Below are positions 24,824-63,895 of a stretch of 64,000 nucleotides of DNA, piece after piece. The first letter of the stretch is position 1. Each line of letters opens with the position of its first letter. Below the pieces are notes generated by a model. That model ran no database searches and was not told the DNA's origin. It was given only the letters and a program-made list of their open reading frames with translations. The DNA lies in NCBI GenBank assembly GCA_905182715.1, contig CAJJCP010000028.1:12592-76591 (forward strand). The letters are read 5' to 3'. A program made the position numbers and the translations under genes. The DNA comes from an uncultured Candidatus Poseidoniales archaeon. Its GTDB lineage: Archaea; Thermoplasmatota; Poseidoniia; Poseidoniales; Poseidoniaceae.

Positions 24824-25516
24824 ATGACAATGCAAGTAGTCAATAGAGAAGGCGAGCGAGAGGATGTTCGTTTCGATGCGATACACGATAAACTCAAAAC
24901 ATTAACCTACGGTCTTGATCCAAATTGGATTGACCCAGGGCATGTTACCAAATTGACCATCGAAGGACTCTATGATGGAGTTACGACCCGTGAACTCGAT
25001 CAACTCGCTGCTGAAACCGCAGCTTCTCTCGCTTCTCAACATCCGGATTATAGCCGCCTTGCAGCACGAATTTGTGTTGATGACCTCCATCGCTCAACCA
25101 AGACCGTCTTCTCAGAAGTCATTACTGATTTGCGTGAATACATTGATCCTGAATCAGGGAAGCACGCACCGCTGATTTCTGAAGAAGTCTATTCAATCAT
25201 CATGGCGAATGCAGAGGTTCTGGATAACCATATTGATTACACTCGTGATCACAATTACGACTATTTCGGATTTAAAACTCTCGAACGTTCCTACTTACTA
25301 CGCTTGTATGGCGAAATTGCTGAGCGCCCACAACACATGTTGATGCGTGTTGCAGTTGGTATTCATCACTCCAATATCACGAAGGCCCTGGAAACATACG
25401 ATTTGATGAGTCAAGGCTACTTCACTCACGCAACACCTACTCTGTTTAACTCAGGGAACCCCAACACCTCAGATGTCATCGTGTTTCTTACTCACCATGC
25501 AAGACGATTCACTTGA
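24824..25516 (+). CDS. nrdA: Ribonucleotide reductase class Ia large subunit (R1), N-terminal fragment (ATP cone plus start of the catalytic domain). A +1 frameshift at about 25454-25457 interrupts it.
   Basis: [20 protein letters not shown] (ATP cone) ...[13 protein letters not shown]. The conserved continuation [13 protein letters not shown] is in the +1 frame. Confidence 0.9.
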
Positions 25517-27218
25517 CGGAATTTACGATACACTCAAGCAGTGTGCTTTGATTTCAAAGTCGGCTGGTGGTATTGGTCTCTCGATTCATCACATTCGTTC
25601 AAAGGGCTCTTACATTAAGGGCACTAATGGGCAGAGCAATGGTATTGTTCCAATGCTGCGTGTCTTTAACGACACAGCGCGATATGTCGACCAAGGTGGC
25701 GGCAAGCGTAAGGGCTCCATTGCCATTTACCTCGAACCTTGGCATCCCGATATCCTTGCCTTCCTCGATTTGCGAAAGAATCACGGAAAGGAAGAACTTC
25801 GTGCACGTGATCTCTTCTATGCTCTGTGGACTCCTGATTTGTTCATGGAGCGTGTTGAACAAAATGCCGACTGGTCTTTCTTCTGTCCAAATGAGTGCCC
25901 AGGACTTCAAGATGCCTATGGTGCAGAATTCAAAGAACTCTTCGAATCCTATGAAGCACAAGGATTGGCCCGAGAAACACTCCCTGCACGAGTTGTCTGG
26001 GACAAATTAGTTGAATCTCAAATTGAAACTGGAACTCCATATATGTTGTACAAGGATGCAGCAAATGAAAAGTCCAACCAAAAGAATCTGGGAACAATTC
26101 GTTCATCGAACCTTTGTACTGAAATTATGGAATACACAGCTAAAGACGAAGTTGCGGTCTGTAACCTCGCATCGATTGCCCTCAACAAATACGTAGATGT
26201 AGCAAATCAATCTTTCAATCATCAACTCTTGTATGACGTGGCTTACCACGCAACTGGGAATCTGAATCGAGTCATCGATGTCAATTACTATCCGGTTGAG
26301 GAAGCTCGTAATTCGAACATGCGCCACCGACCAATCGGTCTTGGTGTTCAAGGTCTTGCTGATACATTTGCTCTTCTAAAGTTGCCTTTCGAGAGCCCTG
26401 AAGCCCGAAAACTCAACAAAGAAATTTTCGAAACAATTTACTTCGCTGCTTGTACCGCTTCGAAGGATGGAGCCATGGTCGAAGGGCCGTACTCAACTTT
26501 CCAAGGTTCACCTGCAAGTAAGGGTGATTTGCAATTCGACCTTTGGGGAATGAATGAACACAGTGGACGATGGGACTGGACTTCTCTGAAAGCAGAGATT
26601 GTTGAGCATGGAATGCGTAATTCACTTCTTGTTGCTCCAATGCCGACTGCTTCGACTTCACAGATTCTTGGAAATAACGAATGCTTTGAAGCGTTCACAT
26701 CGAACCTCTATGTTCGTCGAACTCTTTCTGGTGAATTCATTGTATTGAACAAGCATCTTGTTCGAGATCTCATTGAATTAGGAATTTGGGGAATTGAAAT
26801 GAAAGATGAAATCCTTCGTCACAAGGGCTCAGTTCAGAACATTGCAGGAATTCCTGACCATGTCAAAGAGTTGTACAAAACAACTTGGGAAATCAAGCAA
26901 CGTCACGTCTTGGACATGTCTGCTGACCGCGGTGCATACGTTGACCAAAGTCAATCACTCAACATCCACATGGTCGATGCAAACCCGGCTAAAGTCACTT
27001 CAATGCACTTCTACGGATGGAAGCAGGGACTCAAAACTGGAATGTACTATCTCCGAACCAAGGCTGCAGCAGATGCAATTCAATTCACTGTTGAAGCAAA
27101 GAAAGCTGAAGATCAAACCGTTGGTGGATTAGCTGAGCGTGCTGAAGACATTTCAAGTCTCGAAGCCATCGCTTGTTCACTTGATACGCCTGATGACTGC
27201 CTTAGTTGCGGTTCATGA
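25455..27218 (+). CDS. nrdA: Ribonucleotide reductase R1, C-terminal fragment continuing from the frameshift
   Basis: [47 protein letters not shown]...[15 protein letters not shown]...[15 protein letters not shown]; very eukaryote-like, including the C-terminal CxxC tail. Confidence 0.9.
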
Positions 27219-27348
27219 ATCGATTGATTGAAGTTTATAGATACTCGAGGGTGTAAACCTCCACTCGGGGATTTCAAGTCCTACGGGTGAGGCCCTGAGT
27301 GCGTTTCATCACGCTTCTTTTCCTTGCTCGTAGGCAACTTCTCATTTC

Positions 27349-28164
27349 TTAAGCCGAATGAATCGCATGGCCAAGAGTTGCAAGAACAGCTTCATGGGTC
27401 ATTTCAGTCATGGTCGGATGTGCATGGATTGTTCCAGCAATGTCTTCGAGTAAAGCACCCATCTCAAGAGCGAGCGTCCACTCACCGACCAGCTCACTGA
27501 TGTGAGTACCGACACCTTGGATTCCAAGAATACGATGATCATCTTCCCGTGCGCATACTCGAACAAATCCAGCAGTCTTTTCTGCTTCTTGAGTGAGTGC
27601 GCGTCCGTTTGCTCCCAAGGGGAACTTTCCGATAATCACTGGGTGTCCAGCAGCCTTTGCTTCTTCGGGTGAAAGTCCAACGGATACAATCTCTGGTTCA
27701 GTGAACACAATTGCAGGAACTGCGACTGGATCGTATGCCCGCTTGTGACCGGCGATGATTTCAGCAACCATTTCTCCTTGGAAAGATGCGACGTGGGCCA
27801 ACATTTCTCCTGAATCACATACATCGCCAATTGCATAAACGCCACGCATGTTGGTTTCACAACGGTCGTTGACTTTTACAAACCCACGTTCATCCAAAGC
27901 AACGCCTGTTGGCGCCAGAGATGCTGAGTTTGGTTTTCGGCCAACCGTGACCAGTACTTTGTCGACAATGATGTTCTGCATTTTCGATTCGTCTTTTTCA
28001 TTTTTGTCAATGAAGTTGAGTTGTGTGCGACCGTCTTTTGCTTTTTCAACACCTTTTGCGAAACACACCGAGATGGGTCTTAATTTTCTGCTTCTTAATT
28101 GAAATTTCAAGCGGTCGTCGCAGTTCCTTGTCAAAGATTGGCAGGACACTGTCCATTGCTTCAA
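27349..28164 (-). CDS. lpdA: Dihydrolipoyl dehydrogenase (E3), C-terminal fragment (NAD-binding part, central and dimerisation domains)
   Basis: AKGVEKAKDGRTQLNFID...TVGRKPN...VYAIGDV...HAHPTMTEM match E3. It joins the upstream fragment through a 1-nt frameshift near 28055-28065. Confidence 0.85.
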   Translation of the reverse strand: MKQWTVSCQSLTRNCDDRLKFQLRSRKLRPISVCFAKGVEKAKDGRTQLNFIDKNEKDESKMQNIIVDKVLVTVGRKPNSASLAPTGVALDERGFVKVNDRCETNMRGVYAIGDVCDSGEMLAHVASFQGEMVAEIIAGHKRAYDPVAVPAIVFTEPEIVSVGLSPEEAKAAGHPVIIGKFPLGANGRALTQEAEKTAGFVRVCAREDDHRILGIQGVGTHISELVGEWTLALEMGALLEDIAGTIHAHPTMTEMTHEAVLATLGHAIHSA

Positions 28165-28780
28165 CGACAGTCACTTCAGAACCGAGCATTCGGAATGTGA
28201 TCCCAAGTTCAAGCCCGATGTACCCTCCACCAACGATGGCGACGTGCTTTGGTAATTCTTCAAGCGTCAAAGCCTCACGAGAGGAAATGACGTTTTCGTC
28301 ATAAGGCATGAATGGAAGTTCAATTGGGACTGATCCATTGGCAAGAATGACATGTTCAGCTTGGATGATGGTGGCATCTTTCCCTTCACCGACTTTGACT
28401 GTTTTCGCGTCTTGGAATTCTGCCCACCCGATGATGAGTTCAGCACCTGCATTCTTGAGCAAATGTTCGACGCCTTTGTTGAGCCGAGTGACGATCCCTT
28501 CTTTCCATGAGACTAAGTTCCCCATGTTCAATTCAGCAGGCCCGGGGATTGAGATCCCCATGTGCCCATCATTTGATGCATGCTTTGCTAATTTGTGGAA
28601 TTGATGTGCGGCGTGGATCAAAGCCTTCGATGGAATACAGCCTCTGATGAGACAGGTTCCACCTGCTTTTTCACCTTCGACGATGATGGTTGACAAACCG
28701 AGTTGTCCTGCGCGAATGGCAGCAACATATCCTCCAGGGCCGGCTCCGATGACGAGAACTTGACATTTTTTAGTTTGCAT
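28046..28780 (-). CDS. lpdA: Dihydrolipoyl dehydrogenase (E3), N-terminal fragment (FAD-binding and redox-active disulfide)
   Basis: VLVIGAGPGGYVAAIRAGQLG...GGTCLIRGCIPSKAL...VAIVGGGYIGLELG. The reading frame leaves the conserved sequence at ...DKEL..KKQKIKTHLGVF. Confidence 0.85.
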   Translation of the reverse strand: MQTKKCQVLVIGAGPGGYVAAIRAGQLGLSTIIVEGEKAGGTCLIRGCIPSKALIHAAHQFHKLAKHASNDGHMGISIPGPAELNMGNLVSWKEGIVTRLNKGVEHLLKNAGAELIIGWAEFQDAKTVKVGEGKDATIIQAEHVILANGSVPIELPFMPYDENVISSREALTLEELPKHVAIVGGGYIGLELGITFRMLGSEVTVVEAMDSVLPIFDKELRRPLEISIKKQKIKTHLGVFRKRC

Positions 28781-28791
28781 TTTTTAGCACC

Positions 28792-30072
28792 TCACATGAA
28801 AATTGTAGCCGGATGTTCGAGGTAAGACTTCACCAACTGAACGAGGCTTGCTCCGTCATGGCCATCAACAACTCGATGGTCCCATGATGATGAAAGATTC
28901 ATCATTCGACGAATGACAATGTTGCCATCTCTGACGACTGCACGGTCCTTTGCGTTATGGACGCCAAGAATTCCAACTTCTGGTTTGTTGATGATTGGCG
29001 TTGCACCGAGGCCTCCAAGTCGTCCGAGGCTGGTGATTGTGAAGGTTGATCCTGAAAGGACATCAGCGGTTGCTTTACCATCGCGAGTTGCACTTGTGAC
29101 TCGCATCATTTCTTCAGCAGATTGCCAAATATCCATGGCTTCAACATGTTGGACAACAGGAACAAACAATCCACGGTCAGTTTGAGTTGCAATTCCAAGA
29201 TTGATCGCTTCGTGTCGGGTGACGACGTTTGAATCGTCATCATACACAGCGTTGCATTCCGGACGCTCTCCCAATGCCTTGACCAATGCTTGCATAATGA
29301 AAGGAAGATAGGTCAATTTCGGTGCACCTTCTGGTCGAGTTGCGTTGAGATGTTGACGCAATTCTTCGAGAGCGGTGACATCAACTTCTTCAAAGTAAGA
29401 GAAGTGAGGAATGGTTGTATAGGATGAAACCATGCCTTCTGCAATCTTTCTTCGCAGACCAATGACCTTGATTTCTTCGGTTCCATTTCTCTCAATACGG
29501 GCAGAAGCCCCGATTGGTCGAGCACGGCTTGCGCCACTTGCTCCACCGGCAATGTGAGCATCAAGGTCTGCATGACTGATTCTACCTGCAGGTCCGGACC
29601 CAGCGACCATGTTGAGGTCAATGTTGGCTTGACGTGCACGTTGTCGAACTGCAGGGCTTGACAATGCTTTGGTTCCTGCTGCACGTTGAACGGCGGGTGC
29701 TGCTGCAACCGGTGCTGCTTTTGGAGCAGGTGCGGTTCTGACTTTTGGTGATGCAGGTGCCGGTTCTGCTTTTGGAGCAGGTGTTGGCTCTGCTTTTGGT
29801 GCATCATCAGGTGCTGCAGCGTTTCCATCTCCCTCAACTTCGAATTCGATGCAAACAACGCCAACCGGTAGTGTGTCGCCAGCTTCACCAACGACTCGAG
29901 TTACTTTCCCATCAACAGGTGAAGGGATCTCGACGGTTGCTTTATCGGTCATCACGGAAAGAATTGGATCATCTTCTTTGACAATGTCACCAACAGCGAC
30001 CATCCATTCTACAACTTCGCCTTCGACGACTCCTTCTCCAATATCTGGCATCTTAAATGCAAATGTTCCCAT
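28792..30072 (-). CDS. Dihydrolipoamide acyltransferase (E2) of a 2-oxoacid dehydrogenase complex
   Basis: Lipoyl domain (FKMPDIGEGVVEGEVVEW...SVMTDKATVEIPSP), a peripheral-subunit-binding domain (SSPAVRQRARQANIDL), and the catalytic DHRVVDG. Confidence 0.9.
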   Translation of the reverse strand: MGTFAFKMPDIGEGVVEGEVVEWMVAVGDIVKEDDPILSVMTDKATVEIPSPVDGKVTRVVGEAGDTLPVGVVCIEFEVEGDGNAAAPDDAPKAEPTPAPKAEPAPASPKVRTAPAPKAAPVAAAPAVQRAAGTKALSSPAVRQRARQANIDLNMVAGSGPAGRISHADLDAHIAGGASGASRARPIGASARIERNGTEEIKVIGLRRKIAEGMVSSYTTIPHFSYFEEVDVTALEELRQHLNATRPEGAPKLTYLPFIMQALVKALGERPECNAVYDDDSNVVTRHEAINLGIATQTDRGLFVPVVQHVEAMDIWQSAEEMMRVTSATRDGKATADVLSGSTFTITSLGRLGGLGATPIINKPEVGILGVHNAKDRAVVRDGNIVIRRMMNLSSSWDHRVVDGHDGASLVQLVKSYLEHPATIFM

Positions 30073-30074
30073 AT

Positions 30075-31085
30075 TTATTCCTCCTGTGTTTTCTTTATTG
30101 CTTCAGCTATTCGTGCTGGACTTGGGATATAATCCCATTCCGTAGTGTGAGGGAAAGGTGTATCCCATCCGGTCACTCGAGTAATTGGTGCTTCTAAGTG
30201 GTAGAAGCATCGTTCTTGAATTGATGCACTCATTTCTGCACCAAATCCGCTGGTCTTTGGTGCTTCGTGAACAATCACGCAGCGACCAGTTTTCTTGATT
30301 GAATTGACGACAGTATCTCGGTCCCAAGGTACCAATGTTTGCAAATCGATCAGTTCACAATCAATTCCAGAGTCTTTGATAGCCTGTTCACACATGTGAA
30401 CCATGGTACCCCATGCAATCACAGTACAAGCACTGCCTTCTTGGACGATACGAGCTTCTTCCAAAGGAACGATGTAATGGCCTTCTGGAACTTCAGCGTC
30501 CGGATGACCACTCCATGTAGGAACGTTGTGTGGGTCGCCATAAAATGGTCCTCGGTAGCAACGCTTTGGTTCAAAGAAAATGACAGGGTCGTTGCATTCG
30601 ATCGCAGCGGTCAGTAGGCCTTTGGCGTTGTATGGAGTTGAACAGTAAACAACCTTCAAACCCGGCGTATGGGTGAATTGAGCCTCAGGTGATTGTGAAT
30701 GATGGTGGCCACCTTTGATTCCTCCACCGGCAGGTGTTCTGAATGTCAATGGTGCAGTGAACTCTCCACCGGAACGGTGTCGAACTTTGGCAATTTCATT
30801 GACAATTTGGTCATAGGCTGGGAATATATAGTCTGCAAACTGGATTTCAGCAACAGGTCGCAGGCCATTCAAGCCCATGCCCATTGCAATCGCTGCAATT
30901 CCACCTTCAGCAAGTGGGGAGTCAAAGACCCGGTGTTCTCCGAATTTCTTTTGCAAGCCGTCAGTGACTCGGAATACTCCGCCAAAGAATCCAACATCTT
31001 CTCCAAAGATGACGACGTTCTTGTCCTTCTCAAGTTGTACTTCCAAAGCGGAATTGAGTGCCTTAATCATGTTCATATCAGTCAA
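30075..31085 (-). CDS. Branched-chain 2-oxoacid dehydrogenase E1 component beta subunit
   Basis: EIQFADYIFPAYDQIVNEIAKVRHRSGGEF...HSQSPEAQFTHTPGLKVV... is colinear with BCKDH/PDH E1-beta. Confidence 0.9.
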   Translation of the reverse strand: MTDMNMIKALNSALEVQLEKDKNVVIFGEDVGFFGGVFRVTDGLQKKFGEHRVFDSPLAEGGIAAIAMGMGLNGLRPVAEIQFADYIFPAYDQIVNEIAKVRHRSGGEFTAPLTFRTPAGGGIKGGHHHSQSPEAQFTHTPGLKVVYCSTPYNAKGLLTAAIECNDPVIFFEPKRCYRGPFYGDPHNVPTWSGHPDAEVPEGHYIVPLEEARIVQEGSACTVIAWGTMVHMCEQAIKDSGIDCELIDLQTLVPWDRDTVVNSIKKTGRCVIVHEAPKTSGFGAEMSASIQERCFYHLEAPITRVTGWDTPFPHTTEWDYIPSPARIAEAIKKTQEE

Positions 31086-31096
31086 ATCATCTCACC

Positions 31097-32338
31097 TCAC
31101 TTTCCAAGTTCCTCTCTCTGTTCTTGGACATGCCAAGGTACAGTTTCGTAGACTTCGGTAAAAATAGTTGATGCAGGCGGATAAGGTCCACTTGCCAAAT
31201 CTCCAAACTCACATGCGGCTTTGTATGATGCCATGACTTCATCATCAATTTTCTTAGCCAATGCCGTGTGGCGGGTCTCATTCCACAGTTCTGCTTTCAT
31301 GAGATGATCTTTGAGTCGTTCGATAGGATCTCCACCAGGCCAATATTTGAATTCATCACTTGGGCGGTATACCGAGGGGTCATCGGAAGAAGAATGGCCA
31401 CCAGCACGGTAGGTATACACTTCAATGTGGGTTGCTCCTTTGCCAGCAGCAGCTCGCAAACGTGCCCACTTTGTTACGCTGTAAAGTGCGAGGAAATCAT
31501 TTCCATCCACTCTGAAGGAGGGGATGTCATAGGCTAATCCACGCTCTGCGAAAGTTCGTCCACCTGTTGCAAGGTTGGCGTGAGTTGAAATTGCCCATTG
31601 GTTGTTCACTACATTGAGAATGACTGGTGGCTTAAACGTCGAAGCGAAATTCAATGCGTAGTGATAGTCACCTTGTGCAGATGTTCCATCACCGAGCCAT
31701 GAGATACAAACTTCATCATCGCCTTTGTATGCACTTGCCATCGCTACACCGACTGCTTGGGAGAATTGAGTTCCTACAGGAGATGAAATTGAAATGAATC
31801 GTCCTTGTTTCCAAGTATAGTGGACTGGCATCTGGCGTCCTTTGACATTATCTTCGGTGTTGCCGATGCAATGGCAAATCATACTGACCATGTCGCGTCC
31901 TCGAACAAATTGAGCACCAGGTTGTCGATAGGATGGGAAAATCCAATCTTGTGTTTCAAGCGCCATGGTTTGGGCGATTGCAATTGCTTCTTCGCCAAAA
32001 GACCGCATATAGAACGAAAGTTTACCGGTTCGTTGCATTTTGATCATCCGGTCATCAAATATTCGAAGACGCATCATGTATTCGAGTCCTTGAATCAAGG
32101 TCTCTGCATCCAAGAGAGGGTTCCATTCACCTTCTGCTACACCGTCATCATTGAGAACACGAATCAAACCTGATGCGTGAGCGACTGTATCTTGTGCAGA
32201 ACACTTTGCAGGGTCTGGCCGATTCAAATCGCCGGGCTGCTCAGTAAACTTTCCGCCAAAATCAGCATCTTCACCAGGTCGGAATGGAGGCCGACCGATG
32301 GTGTACGGCTTAGTCGTGGCAGTCACTCTCTCGGTCAT
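31097..32338 (-). CDS. Branched-chain 2-oxoacid dehydrogenase E1 component alpha subunit (TPP-binding)
   Basis: TPP motif region GDGTSAQGDYHYALNFAS...; YRAGGHSSSDDPSVYRPSDEFKYW is typical of E1-alpha. Confidence 0.9.
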   Translation of the reverse strand: MTERVTATTKPYTIGRPPFRPGEDADFGGKFTEQPGDLNRPDPAKCSAQDTVAHASGLIRVLNDDGVAEGEWNPLLDAETLIQGLEYMMRLRIFDDRMIKMQRTGKLSFYMRSFGEEAIAIAQTMALETQDWIFPSYRQPGAQFVRGRDMVSMICHCIGNTEDNVKGRQMPVHYTWKQGRFISISSPVGTQFSQAVGVAMASAYKGDDEVCISWLGDGTSAQGDYHYALNFASTFKPPVILNVVNNQWAISTHANLATGGRTFAERGLAYDIPSFRVDGNDFLALYSVTKWARLRAAAGKGATHIEVYTYRAGGHSSSDDPSVYRPSDEFKYWPGGDPIERLKDHLMKAELWNETRHTALAKKIDDEVMASYKAACEFGDLASGPYPPASTIFTEVYETVPWHVQEQREELGK

Positions 32339-32347
32339 TGTTCCACC

Positions 32348-33376: not shown

Positions 33377-33530
33377 ACATGTTCCCCCTTGTTTCACCCT
33401 ATGCTTTGCCTTTCAAAAAGATGTGCCGTGGTCTTTTTTTGTCATGTACTATGCAAACCGAGATTCCATGTCATTTTCGCATGATTTTTTTTTGAGAGCA
33501 TTGATGAGGGGCGAACGATTCGAACAGTTC

Positions 33531-34277: not shown

Positions 34278-34328
34278 AGCAATGTGCTTAGGGGTTTTCT
34301 TCAAATCCTCTGTGCAGTTCGGAGGTCT

Positions 34329-34415
34329 GCAGGGGTGGCTGAGGTGGTCAAAGGCGCCGGGCTTAAGATCCGGTCCCGTATGGGTTCGTGGGTTCGTATC
34401 CCACTCCCTGCACCA
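34329..34415 (+). tRNA. tRNA-Leu (anticodon UAA), class II with a long variable arm and a genomically encoded CCA
   Basis: The 87-nt sequence folds by hand into a cloverleaf: acceptor stem GCAGGGG/TCCCTGC (7 bp, one G-U); D stem GCT/GGC; anticodon stem CCGGG/TCCGG with loop CTTAAGA (anticodon TAA at 34364-34366); variable arm with a CCC/GGG stem; T arm GTGGG-TTCGTAT-CCCAC; discriminator A followed by CCA. Confidence 0.85.
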
Positions 34416-34434
34416 CTCTCTCAATACTCATTCG

Positions 34435-34456
34435 CCCCCTCGTAGAGGGGGGTTTT
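34435..34456 (+). terminator. Hairpin plus T-tract downstream of the tRNA-Leu
   Basis: CCCCCTC-gta-GAGGGGG is a perfect 7-bp stem, followed by GTTTTG. Confidence 0.4.
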
Positions 34457-34505
34457 GTTGAACATTCAATGCAAAACCGTTTAACACTCGGTTGAACAGG
34501 CCACG

Positions 34506-47054: not shown

Positions 47055-47085
47055 GAACCTTCGTCCTCCAACATTTGTATTCCGT

Positions 47086-52074: not shown

Positions 52075-52086
52075 GAAGGTGATGAG

Positions 52087-52766: not shown

Positions 52767-52814
52767 AACCATGCTTCCTTGGTAAATGGGGTCAATGACT
52801 TTTTTGCACTTCAT

Positions 52815-55800: not shown

Positions 55801-57011
55801 GGCATGGACCAACTTTCAGTGTCATTCAAGAAAAACTGAACATTTGAATGGTTGTAGAGGTATGTATCTCCAATGGTTAATCCCGTGAATTCAAGCATTG
55901 AATCGGTTGTTCCATTCATGGTCACAGTGACGGACTGGAAACTTTGCCCTCCGCCTGGTAAATTTGTAGTTAATGAGATGTCATAATTATTCGTAAGAAC
56001 ACCTCCCCCAAATGATGCGTAATGATATACTTTGAAGTATGCTGTGAAATTTGATAGGGCTGTATATGCTGCTGCTTCATTATCTGAAGAAGAAGACATT
56101 GAAACAAAACTATTGAAAGAAAGTAAACTACCAGTAGCATCTTCTAAAGTTGCATCAATATCGCCACCTGCGTGCAAGAATGTTAAATTGAAGTAGTATG
56201 TGACCCCACTCATCATTTGAATTTCGTAGTAATCATCATTGGCAACTCCAGCAGAATTTATTTCGACACTTAATCCAGTACAAGCAACCGGCAATATGGA
56301 GGCTAAAGTTGCAGTAGCAGGTGTATCATTGGGTTCTAAGATATCCGGGGCATTACCGTTTCCAGTACATGGGCTTGGTATTGCGCTCCCATTACCACCC
56401 GTTCCGTTGCCACCGGTTCCGTTGCCAGTCGAGGTGCTGAATGTCCAGATGTCAAGGGTATAGAATCCATACCCGTCATAACGGTATATTTGTACATAAA
56501 CAGTCCCTCCATGTGGAGTTGCAGAATTATTTGTGCTTACTGATTCGGGGTTAAACATATATGATTCATCGATAAAAGTTCCATTCGCATCATAGATTGC
56601 AAGATCAAAATCGTTTGTATATGTGGAACCGTTTGCAGAAGTATATGTTGTGTTAAAGGAAAGTTGCAGCGCTAATCCTTCATTGGCTGCAAGGTTGACT
56701 GCGACCCAATCTTCATCATCATTGACATCGAGTTCGCCGAAGTCCGAAAAATACACAGGTGCAAACCCTGAAAGGTTTGCAGCAAAGGATGAATTGACTC
56801 CTGACATGTTGTCTGGTAAATCCATGGATAATCCAAAATCGTTTTGATTTGCACCGACTGCAGATACGCTTGGTGCAGTCAATGTCAGCGTCGTTATGAC
56901 AAGCATCAAGGCCAAGAGAATGGAACTCGATTTGTTAGGATTCGTAGAACTCAAGGAAGAGGACATAAACTTGGGACTGAGTGATAGTTTAAGAGACTCT
57001 CTACTCGGCAT
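52815..57011 (-). CDS. Giant cell-surface protein (1398 aa) with a signal peptide, about 10 tandem 33-aa Ca-binding repeats, Cys-containing bacterial TSP3/OmpA-type repeats, a C-terminal TM anchor and a cytoplasmic tail
   Basis: N-terminal ILLALMLVITTLTLTAPSVSA. Repeats FP.DSTQW.DQDGDGYGDNP.GN..DA occur about 10 times. Units of the form D-DGDGV-D--D-CP-TP-G--VD--GC (for example DLDGVTNDIDACPSTPAGENVDATGCS) repeat about 8 times. TM helix LVYAILALLALCGLGALLVV. Confidence 0.8.
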   Translation of the reverse strand: MPSRESLKLSLSPKFMSSSLSSTNPNKSSSILLALMLVITTLTLTAPSVSAVGANQNDFGLSMDLPDNMSGVNSSFAANLSGFAPVYFSDFGELDVNDDEDWVAVNLAANEGLALQLSFNTTYTSANGSTYTNDFDLAIYDANGTFIDESYMFNPESVSTNNSATPHGGTVYVQIYRYDGYGFYTLDIWTFSTSTGNGTGGNGTGGNGSAIPSPCTGNGNAPDILEPNDTPATATLASILPVACTGLSVEINSAGVANDDYYEIQMMSGVTYYFNLTFLHAGGDIDATLEDATGSLLSFNSFVSMSSSSDNEAAAYTALSNFTAYFKVYHYASFGGGVLTNNYDISLTTNLPGGGQSFQSVTVTMNGTTDSMLEFTGLTIGDTYLYNHSNVQFFLNDTESWSMPSNGNFSATATTMMANATSASPVMQESEYCSVSVLKDATGAMLDEDGDCIYIEMLEAYVTSSTTGEIYATNLSTYTDYTVWWLVYDMVEFDNNYTTSMDVDMALTASMIDQMNVTFTTDTATSESWQITWNGPTTMNDHGFVTFLSYNNTQVNLTSNEGFIGVHDDEFIPQLPTMLIDSYSTSSTSATNDVMVKGSDLVTGDDYKYQILVTDSSGASLATSTLSTFTATAQNMSMPTFTYTTPNMSGIYCAVVNLYSSISVQLIGDSDCFSLTIDDDNDGVANEYDLCANTTAGASVDMYGCELSQKDSDGDGYNDMVDDFPYDSSQYSDMDGDGYGDDPNGNSPDAFPLDSSQWDDQDGDGYGDNPSGNASDAFPYDSTQWADQDGDGYGDNAAGNYADEYPTDSTQWADQDGDGYGDNPTGNNGDAFPTDSSQWADQDGDGYGDNPTGTTPDEFPTDSTQWTDTDGDGYGDNPTGNNGDAFPNDATQWEDTDGDGYGDNQAGTDPDAFPMDGTQWEDADGDGYGDNQNGNMADRFPTEPTQWFDADGDSYGDNPNGDTPDHCLNTPAGQSVDSMGCSEQQKDDDLDGVTNDIDACPSTPAGENVDATGCSGSQEDGDNDGIMDAFDACPMTPLGSAVDSAGCADMQRDTDEDGINDQLDECPTTSPSTLVNGVGCSSAERDTDEDGVNDMDDFCPMTGNEDEADSNGCSDAQRDDDDDAIMNDVDDCPDTEIGLITDASGCADNQKDADNDMIDDTIDTCPATPAGEQVNPEGCADSQIDEDNDTINNHKDLCPDTDESHGVDLDGCSEHQKDDDEDGVKNIDDDCPLSPTSSIVFEDGCALTQMDTDQDGINDAEDDFPLDRNETTDTDGDGVSDTYDYYPEDAARTEQEAESSGGGLVYAILALLALCGLGALLVVRKGQETVVDDSPFAAQNYTDSATDSNMVYETTKELPAIEQESQQWEENGVNWSKAADGSLSYYDSASESWIPYQG
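54121..54890 (-). repeat. Tandem coding repeats of roughly 99 bp (about 8-10 units) inside the giant TSP3 protein gene
   Basis: DNA-level periodicity of units such as GTTATCTCCGTATCCATCACCATC...CCCATTGAGT...GGGAA. Sibling-frame ORFs (54107..54982 minus, 54090..54425 plus, 54539..55045 plus) are artefacts of this repeat. Confidence 0.7.
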
Positions 57012-57250
57012 TAAATTGCTGTTGGAGCAACATGGCCCTCTTTTTTGTCTTCTGGTTTACGAACCCGTGACCAAACTCCGCCCATTAATTCATCATGGTG
57101 ATTGCCACAGTAATGGAATCGGCGGTATGCCTCTCGAAATGAGTAGGCTTTTTTTCCAGTTGCTACAAGGAAACCTTCTGGTGAGAGGCGGGATACGATG
57201 GTTCCTTCTTCCCCACAACCAAGGAAATCGCATACTGCTGAGCCGCCCAT
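57011..57250 (-). CDS. Small Cys/His-rich hypothetical protein (putative zinc-binding)
   Basis: 79 aa containing CDFLGCGEEG...HYCGNHHD. Its stop overlaps the giant gene's start codon by 1 nt, suggesting translational coupling. Confidence 0.3.
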   Translation of the reverse strand: MGGSAVCDFLGCGEEGTIVSRLSPEGFLVATGKKAYSFREAYRRFHYCGNHHDELMGGVWSRVRKPEDKKEGHVAPTAI

Positions 57251-57323: not shown

Positions 57324-57725
57324 TCATTCAGCTTCTGGAATCGGCTCAATAACGACCAATGGAATATTCGCTTCAATTGCTTGACCTTCTTCACAAGTCA
57401 CAGAGATGACGGTTCCGGAGACAGGTGCTTGAATTTCATTTTGCATTTTCATGGCTTCCAGAATGAGAATCACTTGTCCTTCAACAACTTCGTCACCAAC
57501 ATTGACTTCGACAGTAACGACTTTCCCAGGGATATTGGCTGAAACTGTGCCCGACTTTTTCTTTTTCCCACTGGCGTTTCTTTTCTTTTTCGCCACAGGT
57601 GCTGCATCAGGTATTTCGATCTGAAATGTTTTTCCTTCCACAGTCGCAGACCAAGAAGTACCTTCGCCTTCAATGACGACTTCAAATTCGGTTCCATCAA
57701 CAATCACTTTTCTTGTTTCAGTCAT
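57324..57725 (-). CDS. Biotin carboxyl carrier protein / biotinyl-domain subunit of the acyl-CoA carboxylase (carboxyltransferase) complex
   Basis: C-terminal biotinyl domain with EAMKM (biotin-Lys motif) and flanking VEGQVILILEAMKMQNEIQAPVSG. An Ala/Pro/Lys-rich linker (PVAKKKRNASGKKKKSG) precedes it. Confidence 0.8.
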   Translation of the reverse strand: MTETRKVIVDGTEFEVVIEGEGTSWSATVEGKTFQIEIPDAAPVAKKKRNASGKKKKSGTVSANIPGKVVTVEVNVGDEVVEGQVILILEAMKMQNEIQAPVSGTVISVTCEEGQAIEANIPLVVIEPIPEAE

Positions 57726-57729
57726 ACTT

Positions 57730-57924
57730 TCACTTCCAAGGTGAGCGACTTGCTCGTTTCTGCATTAATGAGGAAAGACCCATGTTCATTCTTCGATGAT
57801 CTTGGGACCATGCAAGGCCAGGTTTACGGGCAACTTGACCAGGGTCGTCTCCACTTTGTGAGAGTAGGGAATAGACTGCAGCAATCGCTGCCATTCGCAA
57901 GGTCTCTTCATCGTGGCTTGACAT
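57730..57924 (-). CDS. Small putative accessory subunit of the carboxylase/decarboxylase complex (weak call)
   Basis: 64-aa ORF between pccB and the biotin carrier, with a partly hydrophobic segment LRMAAIAAVYSLL. Position is analogous to small delta/epsilon subunits in mmd/pcc clusters. Confidence 0.25.
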   Translation of the reverse strand: MSSHDEETLRMAAIAAVYSLLSQSGDDPGQVARKPGLAWSQDHRRMNMGLSSLMQKRASRSPWK

Positions 57925-57933
57925 ATGAACGCC

Positions 57934-59487
57934 TCAAAGGGGTATATTTCCATGCTTTCGAGCAGGGCGTAATTCTTCTTTATCCAATAACATCTCGAGC
58001 GCACGACAGAGTTTACTTCGAGTTTGGTTTGGTTCGATGACATCGTCCAAATATCCGAGTGCTGCTGCAGTGTACGGATTTGCAAACTTCTCATTAAAAT
58101 CTTCAGTCAGTCTTTGGCGTTCTTGTTCAGCGTTTCGTGAGTTTGCAATTCGCTTTCGATGAATGATTTCGACTGCACCATCTGCACCCATTACTGCAAT
58201 TTCACCGGTTGGCCATGCGACATTGTAGTCTCCACGGATGTGCTTCGATGACATGACATCATATGCGCCACCGTAGGCTTTGCGAAGAATGACTGTGAGT
58301 TTCGGAACAGTTGCTTCTGCATATGCATAGAGGAGTTTAGCACCGTGTCGAATAATTCCTCCCCATTCTTGACTTGTACCCGGTAAGAAACCTGGAACAT
58401 CTTCAAGGGTAATGATTGGAATGTTGAATGCATCACAGAAACGGACGAAACGTGCTGCCTTGTCGCTTGCATCAATGTCCAAACATCCTGCTAACACCTT
58501 TGGCTGATTGGCAACGACGCCAACAGTATGGCTACCAAGGTGACCAAACCCTACAACGATGTTTTGTGCCCAATCCGCTTGGACTTCAAGGAAAGCACCA
58601 TCATCGAGAACTTCTGAAATAACATCAAGGACATCGTATGCTTTTGTCGCTTGGTCTGGCATGATGGTGTCAAGTGCCTCGCAAGAACGGTCGATTGGGT
58701 CACTGGTTTTCTTATCCGGTGGTCGCTCGAGATTATTTTGTGGAAGTAAGTCACACAAATCGCGTGCCAACTGAATTGCTGCTTCGTCATCTGCTGCTGA
58801 AAAGTGAGATACTCCTGACTTGGTGCCATGCGTTGATGCACCGCCTAAGTCTTCAAAGTTCACTTCTTCATTGGTTACTGTTTTGATGACTTCAGGACCT
58901 GTGATGAACATGTATGAGGATTCCTCTACCATGATGACAAAATCCGTAATTGCTGGAGAATAGACTGCTCCACCTGCACACGGGCCCATAATGACAGATA
59001 TTTGGGGTACTACACCAGAGGCGCGAACGTTTCGGAAAAAGATTTCAGCATAACTGCCGAGAGATGCCACGCCTTCCTGAATACGTGCGCCACCAGAATC
59101 GTTCAAACCGATGACTGGGCGCCCTGTTTTGAGTGCCATGTCGAGAACCTTACAGATTTTGAGCCCGTGCATTTCACCCAGTGAGCCACCGTAGGCGGTG
59201 AAGTCTTGAGCAAAAGTAAACACTTGCCTGCCGTTGATAGAGCCATGACCAGTGACGACACCGTCGCCTGGGATGATGTCCTTGTCCATGCCGAAATCTC
59301 TGCATCGATGCTCAACCAACGCATCAAGCTCTTGGAATGTCCCCTCGTCGAGGAGGACATCTATGCGTTCACGGGCCGTCATTTTGCCCTTGCCGTGTTG
59401 GCGGTCGATTCGGTCTTGGCCTCCGCCCATTTCGCTGCGAGATTTACGATTTCGCAAATCTTGGAGTCGTTCCTCTGATGATGTCAT
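57934..59487 (-). CDS. pccB: Propionyl-CoA / methylmalonyl-CoA carboxyltransferase (PccB/MmdA family)
   Basis: [18 protein letters not shown]...[27 protein letters not shown]...[19 protein letters not shown], an acyl-CoA carboxylase beta (crotonase-fold) protein of 517 aa. Confidence 0.9.
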
Positions 59488-59839
59488 AGGCTTCCCAAAG
59501 GGGTCTACGGAAAACCCGCCCTTATGCGTTGCCTTTGTTTGAGGTCGTATGGAGCGTTCTACAGATACTTCCTGAAAAGCGCTTTTTTGAGTATGAATAT
59601 ACTTCCCATTTCATCAATCCACCAAGCACCTCGACTTGAACGCCATCGAACTGATGTCGAACGTCTGAAGTTTAGGGATGATGATGGTGCCCAATACATG
59701 TTCCAACGGTTCAAGGGATTCCTGGGCTTAACAATTTGATTAGGACCAAGCAAATTGATTCCTCTCCAGAAAACGGTGAAGAGTAAATACTCCGTTCATG
59801 CCTCTTGATGAAGCATAGGAAGAGTGAAACAACACGGTC

Positions 59840-60193
59840 ATGAATGCGTCTAAGGGGTGTGTTGATAGGGAGGAGATGCCTCCAACAACCATGAGCGAAC
59901 CGTGGAGAATCGTGGTTGCAAAGCCCGGCTTAGATGGGCATGACCGAGGTGCCAAAGTCGTTGCACGAGCATTACGTGATGCAGGCAACGAAGTCATCTA
60001 CACAGGTTTGCGACGTAGTGCCCAACAAATTGTCGATACTGTTCGTGATGAGGATGCACGTTTCCTCGGGCTTTCTTCTCTTTCTGGTGCTCATGAGCAT
60101 CTTTTCCCAAAGGTTTGTGAACTCTTGAAACAACAAGGTCTCAACGATGTGATTGTTTTTGGTGGAGGAATCATTCCTACTTGGCGATCGTGA
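59840..60193 (+). CDS. Methylmalonyl-CoA mutase small subunit (B12-binding domain), N-terminal fragment. A 1-nt frameshift near 60180-60195 interrupts it.
   Basis: [35 protein letters not shown]...[17 protein letters not shown]...[10 protein letters not shown] is the classic B12-binding (DxHxxG) domain. The start is probably MSEPWRIV at 59891. Confidence 0.8.
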
Positions 60194-60338
60194 ACCACTG
60201 TATGCTTGTGGTATACGTGCTATTTTCGGCCCAGGTACACCTACTTCTGAGATTTTAGAATTTATAGAACAAGCAACACAGTTGGAAAATACTGGCGTTG
60301 GCCAAGACAGCGATTGGTATTGGACCTCATCGGCATGA
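60153..60338 (+). CDS. Methylmalonyl-CoA mutase B12-binding subunit, C-terminal fragment in the +1 frame
   Basis: [24 protein letters not shown] matches the conserved C-terminus (..D...L...GV..IFGPGT..) of the B12-binding domain, continuing from GGGIIP. Confidence 0.75.
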
Positions 60339-60347
60339 GGTGATGGT

Positions 60348-61257
60348 ATGACGTTCGAGTTCCTTGAGCAAGCCAAATCTGGTGACCGCCGTTCACTTGC
60401 GCGAACATTAAGCAGTCTTGAAAACGGTTTAGTCAAGATTGAAGAAGTACTCGATGTAGATTGGTTCAGTCCCTGCTTCCTACGATGGTGATTGGCAAAC
60501 TTTAGCGATTACCGGAGCACCAGGTGTTGGTAAATCATGCCTTCTTGATGGGTTACTTCGCTCGTGGGCCGAAAAAGGACTCCGGGTTGCAGTCTTGGCC
60601 GTTGACCCTTCATCTCCACGAACGGGTGGCGCTTTACTCGGTGACCGAGTACGGATGACTGTCGTCGATGATAAGGAATTAAATGAATTAATTTATTTGC
60701 GTTCAGTTGCCACTCGTAAAGCATCTGGGAGTGTCCCAGTCATCGTAGAAGACATGACCAAAGTTCTCCTCGCTTTAGGCTGGCAGACGTGTGATTATCG
60801 AGACGGTTGGAGCAGGACAGTCCGAAGTGAGATGTGCAGCATTGGCTGATCGAATTGTGGTTGTTGAAGGGCCGGCACGAGGCGATGGAATTCAAGCTGA
60901 AAAAGCAGGCTTACTCGAATTAGCAGATGCAGTTTTAGTGAACAAATCTGATTTGCCTGGAGCAGAACTTCACGCTGATGAAATACGAGAGTCGTTTGAA
61001 TTGGGTGCAGGAAGTACCCCGCCGTTCTCTTGACTTCAGCCATACAAGGTACTGGTATTTCTGAGGCTGCTGAAATGCTTCTCATGCTTTCATCTTCTGG
61101 TCGCTCAACACGTGCACGATGGCGAGAACGCCTTTTGGCATACCATGAACGAAAAATCCTCGAATCTCCTCAACTCGATGAATTACTCGAAAAACTGGCG
61201 AAGGGTTCAATTCTGTTAGATGAAGCGTTACATATTATTGGTGGTGAACAGCAATGA
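60348..61257 (+). pseudogene. meaB: MeaB/ArgK-family methylmalonyl-CoA-mutase-associated GTPase, disrupted by at least three frameshifts (four frame segments)
   Basis: Frame segments: MTFEFLEQAKSGDRRSLARTLSSLENG; then +1 to ...LAITGAPGVGKSCLLDGLLRSWAEKGLRVAVLAVDPSSPRTGGALLGDRVRM; then +1 to IIETVGAGQSEV...ADAVLVNKSDL; then -1 to ...AIQGTGISEAAEMLL...RARWRERL. All are colinear with MeaB P-loop, switch and NKxD motifs. An SD-like GGTGATGG precedes the ATG. Confidence 0.75.
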
Positions 61258-61878
61258 GTGAACATGTTGAATTAACAAACCCCGTTGAATTATCAGTTGG
61301 TGGAATGGGCGGGCATTTATTTCGTCGTTCAATCCATCTTGGTATGTCCCTTCTGCCTTTGGTCTTCTTTGAATATGGTGAATCACTTGCCGACCTCGTT
61401 GGATTAACAGTCCCTCAATTATTATCATCAATGGTTTTTTTATTGTTTCTTTTAGAAGGCCTTCGTCTTGGTTTTGGGATCACAATCTATGGGCAAAGAG
61501 AGTATGAAGCCCGACAAGTTTCCGCTTTGGGTTGGGGCGCATTTGGTATTGGTCTGGTCTTTTTGTTGGCGCCCGTCGAAGCATACGCATGGCCAATTAT
61601 TCTTTCTTTATCCTTAGGTGACCCCTTTCTTGGTGAAATGAGACGCCGAGGTATTGGAACCCGTAATGTTATTCTTTCATCCGTTGCCTTCTTGTTCCTT
61701 GTTTGGGTTGCATGCTGGCACTTCTTTTGCTACACCATTATGGCTGGCCTTTTTGTTTGCGCCTTTGTGCGTAGCCTCTGAATGGCCTCGTCTGCGGTAC
61801 ATCGATGACAACGCAACCATGGTCCTCATTCCACTTGGAATGATTTTACTGTTCGAGCCCTTTCTCCAACTGATGTAA
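61254..61878 (+). CDS. Hypothetical polytopic membrane protein (possibly dolichol/polyprenol kinase-like), possibly frameshifted near 61650-61780
   Basis: Several TM helices and an LSLGDPFLGEMRRRGIG motif reminiscent of the GD..A..VG...G box of CTP-dependent polyprenol kinases. Two overlapping ORFs (61254..61781 frame 0, 61654..61878 frame +1) are both hydrophobic. Confidence 0.35.
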
Positions 61879-62109
61879 TCAAATTATGTGTAGAAGTTGA
61901 CTCAATATATTCAAATGATGGTTAGCATTGGCAAGGTTGAGGGATACAGATGAGCGAAGAGACCAAGGATTCAGCACCACCACAAATCGCCTACTTTGTT
62001 GTGTTTTCTCTCGGTGTCATTTTCCTCGCAATCTCCATGGTGAGATATCCTCTTTGGGGCCTTTGATTTCTAAGGGATGCTTGAAGAAGGTCACCGTTTT
62101 GGTCACCTT

Positions 62110-63594
62110 ATGTGTGGCATAGGTGGGATGTTCGGTGAGCCGGACCCTGCTGTTGTTCAAAGAATGAATACACTCCTTCACCATCGTGGACCAAATGGCA
62201 ATAATGTCTGGTCTGATGACCATATATCTCTTGGACATACTCGTTTAGCCATCGTTGACTTAGGCGGAAGTGACCAACCTTTGTTTGGCTCAGCACGTGA
62301 AGTCCTTGTAGCGAATGGAGAAATCTATAACTATCGAGAAATCCGGTCTCAGCATCCCTCTTTTTCTTGGAAAACGCAGGGTGACTCTGAGTCGATATTG
62401 GCACTTCTTGATGCCTCGAAATCGAAGCATTCCGGCGTGTTAACTGCTCGACAACACGCACAATGGATCTCACAATTGAATGGAATGTATGCATTTGCTC
62501 TTTGGGATTCTGAGACTCGTCATTTACTTTTAGCGCGTGACCCACTTGGAATTAAGCCACTTGTTCGGACATCAGTTGACGGTTCACTTCTTTTTGCCAG
62601 TGAAAGTAAAGCATTGCGGGCACATGAAGGCCATGTACCTGCACTGGATGAGGAAGCACTTGTTGCTCGTCTTGCATGGGAATACCCGCTTGATGGTACG
62701 ACGTTACTGAAAGATGTCACTCAGATTCGACCAGGTACTGTTGAAGTTTGGGCATTGGACCTTGAAGGTAAAGCCAAACTGTTTGACCGTGCTACCATCG
62801 AACAACAAAAAGTCAATCCTTTGAATACATGGGGTCCTGAAACCGATGCAGAATCCCTGCTGGAAACTTTCGTCGAAGGTGTTTCAGAACGCCTCATGTC
62901 GGATGTACCAGTTGGAATTGTTCTTTCTGGTGGACTTGATTCTTCATTGGTAGCAGCAGTTGCCCATGAGGCTGCAGAACGTGCCCATCAGCCGGTTCCG
63001 GCCTGTTGGACGGTCGCAGAAAGTGAAGAGAACCCTGATTGGATTGCTGCTGAAGAAGTTGCTTCCTCGTTTGATTTGGTCCACCATCAACATATTCTCG
63101 AACCAGATTCATTTGACACGCTCCTTCCAGATTTGTCATGGCATGGTGAAGACCTTGACGTCACCGTACTCTTTTTCCAGCCACTCTTCCAAAAGATGTC
63201 ACAACATGTGACGGTTGGATTGTGTGGACAAGGGGCAGATGAGTTGCATGCAGGTTATCCCCGCTACCGAGATCTCAAGGCACATGGCGAGGTTATTGAT
63301 GCTCGTTTGGCATCGATGGAACATCCTTTTGCACGTCAAATGGAGAATGAAGCATTGCCTGTTGGTGAGCACTGGTATGCGAAGGGTCATGCAGGCGGTA
63401 GCCATACGGGTTCACTGGAAGAGTTCCTTCAATTCGAGCTCGACCACGGGCAACTTTCAAATTTCCAATTACGATTGGTTGACCGCCATTCAATGGCTCA
63501 TTCATTAGAAGTTCGAGTTCCATTCCTTTCTAAGTCTCATCGACAAGCCAGTCATCAATTGCCGATGGAATGGCGACTTCCTGCCGAACGGTGA
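62110..63594 (+). CDS. asnB: Asparagine synthetase (glutamine-hydrolysing), N-terminal and central part. A +1 frameshift near 63580-63590 interrupts it.
   Basis: MCGIGGMFG (Ntn Cys2), ...LAIVDL..GSDQPLF..., and the SGGLDSS PP-loop. After VRVPFL the conserved AsnB sequence continues in the +1 frame. Confidence 0.85.
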   Translation: MCGIGGMFGEPDPAVVQRMNTLLHHRGPNGNNVWSDDHISLGHTRLAIVDLGGSDQPLFGSAREVLVANGEIYNYREIRSQHPSFSWKTQGDSESILALLDASKSKHSGVLTARQHAQWISQLNGMYAFALWDSETRHLLLARDPLGIKPLVRTSVDGSLLFASESKALRAHEGHVPALDEEALVARLAWEYPLDGTTLLKDVTQIRPGTVEVWALDLEGKAKLFDRATIEQQKVNPLNTWGPETDAESLLETFVEGVSERLMSDVPVGIVLSGGLDSSLVAAVAHEAAERAHQPVPACWTVAESEENPDWIAAEEVASSFDLVHHQHILEPDSFDTLLPDLSWHGEDLDVTVLFFQPLFQKMSQHVTVGLCGQGADELHAGYPRYRDLKAHGEVIDARLASMEHPFARQMENEALPVGEHWYAKGHAGGSHTGSLEEFLQFELDHGQLSNFQLRLVDRHSMAHSLEVRVPFLSKSHRQASHQLPMEWRLPAER

Positions 63595-63895
63595 TGAAAA
63601 GCTGGCCTTACGGGCCGCAGCATCGCTCACCTCGTTGCCAAAGCATATTGTTCGCCGCCCTAAACTACCTGCTGGTCGGGCGACATCCCCCACTTTAATC
63701 GATAACCTCCTTGCAGAATACAAGCCCCAAACCGATGCTCTTCTTCGGCGTTACCCCTCATTTTCTGGGGCTTTAAAGACACAGCATGATATAGCCCTGG
63801 GTTTAGGATTGTTTGAGGCAGTTCACATTTTGGATAGAGGGACGAAGAAACCTACGGGTTCGACGATGGATTTACTCAACGAGGTGATTGGTTGA
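63581..63895 (+). CDS. asnB: Asparagine synthetase C-terminal fragment in the +1 frame
   Basis: NGDEKLALRAAASLTSLPKHIVRRPKLPAGRA parallels the AsnB C-terminal region (...K..LR.A....LP..I..R.K..F..P...). Confidence 0.7.
   Translation: MPNGDEKLALRAAASLTSLPKHIVRRPKLPAGRATSPTLIDNLLAEYKPQTDALLRRYPSFSGALKTQHDIALGLGLFEAVHILDRGTKKPTGSTMDLLNEVIG

Follow-up and report, generated by a model that had tools for sequence, protein, structure and literature searches.

The frameshifts that split conserved genes in the window, the 64,000-nt stretch of metagenome contig from a Poseidoniaceae (Marine Group II) archaeon that was analysed, are very probably artefacts of a consensus collapsed from several strains rather than signs of gene decay or recoding, as judged by sequence comparison. 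The window was compared with about 45 related loci from independent assemblies in ENA, NCBI, JGI, Logan, and Tara, among which two clades of haplotypes, A and B, were sampled. L034 (clade A type) and L002 (clade B type) were the references for the first of three mixed tracts described below and L026 (clade A type) and L012 (clade B type) for the third, and the second was compared between the L001 and L002 types. Events private to the contig amounted to 16 single-base insertions vs. 3 single-base deletions (two-sided binomial p = 0.004), and all 19 were 1 nt in size. The splits in nrdA, lpdA, the transglutaminase (TGase) gene (twice), the B12 subunit, meaB, a membrane protein, and asnB that a first-pass annotation had reported were all present in the sequence, and the bias towards extra bases that it had described was both confirmed and extended.

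The ribonucleotide reductase alpha gene nrdA (24824 to 27218, plus strand; Pfam and haplotype comparison) carries an extra base at 25457 (CAGGG[A]ACCCC), which divides it into frames 24806-25513 and 25410-27215, with the Pfam domains ATP-cone and RNR_lgN before the break and RNR_lgC after it. At this site clade A reads GGG-ACC and clade B GGA-ACC, and both the G and the A are retained in the window. The dihydrolipoyl dehydrogenase gene lpdA (27349 to 28780, minus strand; Pfam and haplotype comparison) has an extra base at 28060 (plus strand TTTGC[G]AAACA), giving minus-strand frames 28049-28783 and 27352-28170, and its Pfam domain Pyr_redox_2 is broken at about profile position 200. The giant TGase-domain gene (37615 to 46547, plus strand; 2976 aa when corrected) is broken at 40505 (AGCCA[C]TGCGT) and near 42054 into frames 37543-40509, 40490-42124, and 42021-46544, with Transglut_core broken at profile position 50. 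Site 40505 is the union of GCCA-TGCG (L001 type) and GCTACT-CTT (L002 type), and site 42054 lies in a divergent patch, where the second parent is absent from the sampled haplotypes.

An RHH (CopG-like) gene of 124 aa (49534 to 49910, minus strand) carries extra bases at 49782 and 49856, and at the former (GAGGA[T]ATTG) the A and T alleles of a clade A/B SNP are both retained. Upstream of it, the intergenic stretch from 49939 to 50066 contains a -1/+1 pair at 49939/49944 and single insertions at 49988 (ACAGA[C]TGATT), where C and T alleles stand in tandem, and at 50066. The gene for the B12-binding small subunit of methylmalonyl-CoA mutase (59840 to 60338, plus strand; 165 aa) falls into frames 59828-60190 and 60153-60335 owing to one added base at 60178 (ATTCC[T]ACTTG); in the codon concerned, clade A has CCA and clade B CCT, and the window retains the third base of each.

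Six events fall in meaB (60348 to 61261, plus strand; 303 aa, Pfam MeaB), which is spread over four frames with shifts of +1, +1, and -1. These are insertions at 60459, 60787, and 61249, the last of them three codons upstream of the stop, a deletion at 61024, where the third position varies among A, C, and T, and two events at 60474 (+1) and 60484 (-1) that compensate each other within the gene. The adjoining gene for a 207-aa membrane protein (61254 to 61878, plus strand) has an extra C at 61724 (CACTT[C]TTTTG; frames 61248-61778 and 61642-61875). Its earlier description as DolK-like found no support, the intact 207-aa orthologue having no Pfam match. Lastly, asnB (62077 to 63895, plus strand; 605 aa) has a surplus G at 63583 (TTCCT[G]CCGAA) that divides it into frames 62074-63591 and 63509-63892; at this site clade A reads CCT-CCG and clade B CCTGCC-. 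The RHH insertions, the indels upstream of that gene, the meaB insertion at 61249, and the compensated meaB pair had all been missed by the first-pass annotation.

Two further candidates were rejected as lesions. Positions 37457/37543, considered as a third TGase frameshift, mark the boundary between two genes, whose products in relatives are 984 and about 2950-2980 aa long, and the in-frame stop at 52815 separates two abutting genes, likewise in relatives. The Rfam and tRNA scan of the window returned a tRNA-Leu only, which has no bearing on the frameshifts.

Removal of one base per site yielded corrected proteins that were 97.4-100% identical to relatives and had no internal stops. Without the base at 25457, NrdA is 797 aa long and 100% identical to L034, and without that at 28060, LpdA is 476 aa long and 99.6% identical to the same locus. 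The TGase protein minus both bases reaches 2976 aa with no internal stop and is 97.6% identical to L001. Identity to L026 was 99.4, 100, and 98.3% for the corrected B12-binding subunit, the 207-aa membrane protein, and AsnB, respectively, and 295 of 303 MeaB residues were as in L026.

None of the indels was found in any related assembly among the approximately 45 loci. Throughout this set nrdA, lpdA, the TGase gene, the B12 subunit, meaB, the 207-aa protein, asnB, and the RHH gene were intact, with the sole exception of L030, which has a private asnB split of its own at a different site. In a set of about 15 billion proteins, the nrdA and asnB fragments were confined to a single contig, and the members of their 90% clusters were full length (795-799 aa for nrdA and 605 aa for asnB). 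A 26-mer spanning the asnB junction had no match in GTDB representative genomes. When JGI metagenomes were scanned for the nrdA junction either with or without the extra base, a single match turned up; it was intact, and one match is too few to weigh.

The identity of the extra bases points to their origin. At all 12 insertions where both clades were sampled (25457, 28060, 40505, 49782, 49988, 60178, 60459, 60474, 60787, 61249, 61724, and 63583), the extra base was the other clade's allele at a SNP. Of two neighbouring bases in the window at these sites, one was missing in clade A and the other in clade B, and every base had the support of one clade. Both testable deletions, 60484 and 61024, fell exactly on inter-clade SNPs. 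Since the alleles stand in tandem, the excess of +1 events follows, and since the testable insertions are alternative SNP alleles, the error is placed at the consensus or merging of a strain mixture and not at base calling. The two sampled clades leave four events without an explanation, those at 42054, 49856, 49939/49944, and 50066; the window has private alleles there, so these events require the assumption of a third haplotype outside the sample.

All 19 events lay inside the mixed 26% of the window. In mixed tract 1 (25400 to 29900), the 330 informative SNPs gave 122 switches between clade A and clade B, and 14 alleles were private; mostly clade A sequence lies to the left of this tract and pure clade B sequence to its right. 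Mixed tract 2 (40300 to 45000) showed 70 switches over 226 SNPs within 40300-42340, and in mixed tract 3 (57400 to 64000), which contains nine indel events, 143 switches were seen among 639 SNPs and private alleles numbered only 10 in 6470 nt. Private substitutions were thus rare, with 10 in 6.5 kb and 14 in 4.5 kb (about 0.15-0.3%). No private indels were found in the single-haplotype tracts, 29911 to 40257 and 50116 to 57200. The former is of clade B, with about three A alleles among approximately 765 informative SNPs and 100% identity to L002-L011, and the latter is of clade A (L026 type), with 339 A vs. 1 B allele at 52827-57185. Likewise, the first 19.8 kb had no window-specific gaps against six relatives (98.5-98.7% identity).

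Control assemblies showed 2-38 switches, and 85-99% of their alleles (mostly at least 93%) came from one clade, with one exception. This was the short-read-style scaffold L031/L039, which is partly mosaic in appearance and has no indels, so some of the fine-scale allele sharing may be natural. Clade B alleles made up only about 25-30% of the mixed tracts, not 50%, so the mixing was not a simple two-sequence tie. A deterministic tie-break, as in a two-sequence overlap merger, was rejected: allele choice was independent of base identity and fell to clade A in about 70-75% of cases.

This pattern is best explained by a strain-collapsed consensus to which two or more co-occurring haplotypes at strain level contributed, all from a single Poseidoniaceae population and about 90-95% identical within the mixed tracts. 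Where one haplotype contributed, the sequence is clean, and where two did, it flips between their alleles at intervals of a few tens of bases. In this reading, the alleles of some SNPs were not aligned in one column but spread over two neighbouring ones, so that an insertion stood beside a deletion. Keeping both columns would add a base and shift the frame by +1, and dropping both would lose a base and shift it by -1. As all genes are intact in each natural haplotype, the frameshifts would exist in no organism. We infer that the faulty step was consensus, polishing, or merging.

The first-pass annotation had attributed the frameshifts to an artefact of sequence production rather than to pseudogenes or unusual decoding, and in this it was upheld by the comparison with relatives; the cause it had proposed, homopolymer overcalling, was not. 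Under that explanation runs are over-counted by the sequencer and the extra bases are inherited by the assembly, which suits events that are single-base and mostly insertions. A few sites do adjoin short runs, namely GGG at 25457, coding-strand TTT at 28060, and a T-run at 61724. However, when the context of 15 inserted bases was scored against the closest haplotypes, 12 were unlike both neighbours, 3 matched a neighbour (about 6.6 expected by chance), and none extended a run of at least 3 nt. The statement that several frameshifts sit at short homopolymers therefore holds for adjacency only, and the C at 61724 breaks up its T-run instead of lengthening it. The expected coincidence of frameshifts with homopolymer runs was not seen either: the window has 134 runs of at least 5 nt (up to 9 nt), none of them was altered in length by any of the indel events, and the error rate did not rise with run length. 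Alternative SNP alleles at 12 of 12 testable sites are not expected of random base-calling noise. No errors were seen in the clean tracts, which span 10 and 7 kb, or in the leading 19.8 kb, and sequencer-level insertion error is accordingly considered very unlikely. An apparent preference for G insertions on the coding strand vanished after closer relatives fixed the gap positions, and the nrdA GGG-A and lpdA TTT-C sites, considered as slippery +1 sites or homopolymer extensions, were rejected as such after comparison with the closest haplotypes.

Genuine pseudogenisation, in which the indels are truly part of this strain's genome and nrdA, lpdA, meaB, asnB, and other genes are being lost, is given a similarly small probability. 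The indels are present in the deposited sequence, and a real but rare genotype is conceivable; many frameshifted conserved genes in one region also recall decaying genomes such as those of Mycobacterium leprae and recent symbionts. Yet the genes hit serve core functions, intergenic sites are affected too, and the indels are common to no other assembly. Prokaryotic gene decay is marked by a deletion bias and by indels of varied size, whereas insertions prevail here and every event is 1 nt. Unlike decay of the M. leprae type, the contig shows no deletions above 1 nt and no in-frame stops, its private substitution load is near nil, removal of single bases restores proteins up to fully identical to those of relatives, and the extra bases are alleles of the sister clade. 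Even less probable is that cells recover the reading frame by programmed +1 ribosomal frameshifting or by editing of the transcript. The strong +1 bias and the otherwise functional appearance of the genes would suit such decoding, and as in bacterial prfB and Euplotes genes the coding sequence continues in the +1 frame and skipping one base gives an intact protein. Orthologues normally share their programmed frameshift sites, prfB being an example, but here the sites are kept in no relatives, although these are locally 98-100% identical, and all orthologues lack the extra base. Unlike in prfB and Euplotes, the sites have no common motif (GGG-A, TTT-C, CCA-C, CC-T-A, CAG-A, and others), several are outside coding sequence, and one of the shifts is -1. 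Equally far-fetched is a rare natural recombinant strain with real indels, in which many +1 frameshifts in core genes are tolerated or decoded; if this were true, recoding would be widespread in a member of Marine Group II.

A strain-collapsed consensus remains the preferred reading and has precedents. Long-read assemblers merge similar strains into consensus contigs, as Flye does with E. coli strains (PMC8302730), and indels in long-read consensus sequences lead to frameshifted gene calls (PMC9262707). As in the former, one contig here represents several strains, the consensus departs from every real strain, indels fragment genes, and the error is limited to polymorphic stretches. In contrast to those examples, the exact lesion can be read here as both SNP alleles in tandem, a signature not described in PMC8302730 or PMC9262707. 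Homopolymer errors of 454, Ion Torrent, and Nanopore sequencing (PMC9262707) similarly truncate gene calls by single-base indels in otherwise good assemblies, but they alter run length and increase with it, whereas the runs are untouched here and most inserted bases differ from their neighbours.

Parts of the contig are chimeric, combining two or more strains, and the same probably holds for the whole MAG. The contig is unfit for inferring pseudogenes, gene loss, or recoding in Poseidoniaceae, and these frameshifts offer no biology to pursue. A strain-collapsed consensus can be recognised by a +1 bias together with insertions that fall at SNPs and not in homopolymers; homopolymer-aware polishing would leave such errors in place, and comparison with sister haplotypes detects them without reads. 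We suspect that a long-read or overlap-based assembly lies behind the contig, because other assemblies with 'contig_N' names share the error and short-read-style ones do not. Among the former, L006 carries a private non-homopolymer insertion at 37346, with no second haplotype for comparison, and private insertions with the same signature were found in L030 at window-equivalent position 62516 and in L002 at 22710 and 29069.

All gene splits listed in the first-pass annotation were borne out by six-frame stop-to-stop reading combined with Pfam. In nrdA, the ATP-cone and RNR_lgN domains share one frame and RNR_lgC is encoded in the following one, while Pyr_redox_2 of lpdA is broken at profile position ~200. 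The giant transglutaminase-domain (TGase) gene is broken twice, and its second piece takes up Transglut_core from profile position 50. Single splits affect the B12-binding mutase subunit, a 207-aa membrane protein, and asnB, and meaB is spread over four frames by shifts of +1, +1, and -1. Other candidate readings were rejected: the ORF at 47089-49200, considered as a mutase, is an XPD-type helicase in Pfam, the ORF at 57937-59610, considered as asnB, is a carboxyltransferase, and the 37457/37543 junction, judging by the relatives, separates a 984-aa gene from the TGase gene rather than marking a frameshift. The GC content of the window is ~46% throughout. Its proteins match exactly to a contig of 100,518 bp in NCBI and ENA, and close members of their clusters bear the name Candidatus Poseidoniaceae archaeon or Euryarchaeota archaeon (Marine Group II).

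About 45 related loci were gathered by exact-protein look-up of neighbouring genes from independent ENA, NCBI, JGI, Logan, and Tara assemblies. The affected genes are unbroken in all of them, encoding NrdA (795-802 aa), LpdA (476 aa), TGase (2945-2976 aa), the B12 subunit (148-165 aa), MeaB (303 aa), the 207-aa protein, and an RHH protein (124-161 aa). AsnB (605 aa) is likewise unbroken, except in locus L030, which has its own private split at another site. The nrdA and asnB fragments of the window were found in a single contig only among 15 billion proteins, and a JGI scan for the nrdA junction matched one contig, which carried the unbroken version. When one base was deleted per insertion site and one put back per deletion, all proteins became full length without internal stops. 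Compared with a relative, the repaired NrdA (797 aa), LpdA (476 aa), TGase (2976 aa), B12 subunit (165 aa), 207-aa protein, and AsnB (605 aa) were 100, 99.6, 97.6, 99.4, 100, and 98.3% identical, respectively; MeaB (303 aa) agreed at 295 of 303 residues, and RHH (124 aa) closely matches L026.

BLASTN of all related loci against the window listed 16 private insertions (25457, 28060, 40505, ~42054, 49782, 49856, 49944, 49988, 50066, 60178, 60459, 60474, 60787, 61249, 61724, and 63583) and three private deletions (49939, 60484, and 61024). Absent from the first-pass list were two events in the RHH gene, further ones upstream of this gene, one located three codons ahead of the stop of meaB, and a pair inside meaB whose members compensate each other. 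Compared with the closest haplotypes, the inserted base was unlike both neighbours at 12 of 15 resolvable insertions, where ~6.6 of 15 would match a neighbour by chance. None of the indels altered the length of any of the 134 runs of at least 5 nt in the window, and at 61724 the inserted base is a C that breaks up a T-run. The insertion-type artefact suspected in the first-pass annotation is upheld, but its attribution to homopolymer overcalling is not.

The relatives form two natural haplotype groups per region, clade A (L026-33, L034-40, and L001) and clade B (L002-11, L012-16, and L042-46), whose alignments place the gaps at adjacent, not identical, positions. When both haplotypes are aligned with it, the window equals their exact union at the testable insertions. 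At the nrdA site, clade A reads TCAGGG-ACC, clade B TC-CGGAACC, and the window TCAGGGAACC; the same union occurs at lpdA, TGase 40505, RHH 49782, 49988, B12 60178, meaB 60459, 60474, and 60787, 61249, 61724, and asnB 63583. Each site holds both alleles of one SNP, or of two nearby SNPs, in tandem, which makes the window one base longer than each natural haplotype. Both testable deletions (60484 and 61024) fall on SNPs of which both alleles are lost. A random insertion would adjoin an inter-clade SNP and carry the other allele in ~5% of cases by our own estimate (SNP density ~0.1 per nt); finding the other-clade allele at 12 of 12 testable insertions cannot be chance. At 42054, 49856, 49939/49944, and 50066, the window alleles were found in neither sampled clade.

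All 19 events lie inside the mixed 26% of the window. At clade-differing positions the window switches finely between clade alleles, often between SNPs just 3 nt apart; 143 such switches were counted at 57.4-64 kb, 122 at 25.4-29.9 kb, and 70 at 40.3-42.3 kb. Control assemblies showed 2-38 switches, one clade supplying 85-99% of alleles (at least 93% in most). Private alleles were also counted, since any third lineage trivially shares A or B alleles. Their number was low (10 across 6470 nt and 14 across 4501 nt), so where the window departs from clade A it nearly always carries the clade B allele. Read from these alleles, the mixed tracts match a chimera rather than an independent lineage. Single-haplotype tracts, free of private indels, separate the mixed ones: clade B at 29.9-40.3 kb (100% identity to ten assemblies), an L001-like type at 45-49.5 kb, and clade A at 50.1-57.2 kb. 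Every testable mixed tract mixes its two flanking types, which fits overlapping sources from different strains or a low-coverage two-strain pile-up. Clade A alleles were chosen in ~70-75% of cases independently of base identity, so the choice is not a simple two-sequence tie-break.

The frameshifts are therefore an artefact of insertion type and not a biological feature, and we infer that consensus, polishing, or merging was the step at fault. Gene decay and programmed frameshifting or editing are, even taken together, very improbable. Decay would be expected to leave a substitution load, which is missing; it is also contradicted by the bias towards insertions with an invariable length of 1 nt, by the perfect recovery of the proteins on repair, and by the origin of the extra bases as borrowed alleles. 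Programmed frameshifting or editing is opposed by the lack of a motif common to the sites, their absence from relatives that are locally 98-100% identical, the involvement of non-coding DNA, and the existence of a -1 event. Some allele sharing may be natural, as a short-read-style scaffold (L031/L039; ERZ23491199 KOPF15-1 scaffold_259) is a partial A/B mosaic with 90 and 75 switches and 66 private alleles but no indels; it may stem from a naturally intermediate lineage or from chimeric short-read assembly.

Private single-base insertions also occur in other public assemblies of this population with 'contig_N' names (ERZ1699695, ERZ1699696, and ERZ16273742), a naming that we take to suggest long-read assemblers. 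In L030 (ERZ1699696 contig_907; L030:5597-7415), an insertion at window-equivalent 62516 breaks its asnB; L002 (ERZ1699695 contig_3985) has insertions at 22710 and 29069 and an E2 acyltransferase gene broken by a private insertion (L002:12267-13350), and L006 has one at window-equivalent 37346. Those at 62516, 22710, and 29069 are again unions of both clades' alleles. No insertions were found at these sites in NODE_, k141_, and scaffold-named (short-read-style) assemblies. Merging of similar strains into consensus contigs is described for long-read assemblers (PMC8302730), and long-read consensus indels, mostly blamed on homopolymers, lead to frameshifted gene calls (PMC9262707). An M20/M28 peptidase gene is called as 242 + 362 aa in L023:1-1133 (ERZ16273741 contig_1280) and carA as 253 + 190 aa in L025:16307-17653 (ZHAN22-3 scaffold_334), probably reflecting further assembly-level frameshifts or stops.

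The first 19.8 kb are 98.5-98.7% identical to six relatives with no window-specific gaps. This stretch (1-19827) is without indels, yet 212 positions, clustered at 9.1-9.7 kb and 11-15.5 kb, are unlike all six clade representatives, and at 13.6-19.8 kb the window alternates between L022 and L037 types with 27 switches. It may be a strain mixture too, with a poorly sampled second parent. At 22400-23620, in the surroundings of CSD and CutA1 and also upstream of the RNR small-subunit gene, the clades are only ~85-89% identical with many indels, far more divergent than in flanking genes. The length called for the RNR small subunit itself varies between assemblies (348, 390, 401, or 407 aa).

On the plus strand, a tRNA-Leu (anticodon UAA) occupies 34329-34415 between an SDR gene and the 984-aa gene, and the 124-aa ORF at 34087-34461 overlapping it is spurious. 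At 57324-61261, the gene order is carboxyltransferase, 64-aa protein, and biotin carrier, followed, in divergent orientation, by the small (B12-binding) mutase subunit and MeaB; the large subunit is absent from the 64,000 nt of the window. At 61254-61261 (ATGAGTGA), the meaB stop codon and the start of the gene for the 207-aa membrane protein overlap, an arrangement kept in relatives that suggests translational coupling. Giant acidic surface-type proteins are encoded at 37615-46547 (2976 aa, transglutaminase domain and TSP3 repeats) and 52815-57011 (1398 aa, TSP3 repeats). In its first third, the TGase gene matches clade B at 100% identity; beyond that, its identity to any relative is only 88-96%, marking a strain-variable locus. 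A His_Phos_1 gene (52305-52817, minus strand) starts in the same frame directly past the stop of the 1398-aa gene; a read-through was rejected, as the two are abutting genes in all relatives.
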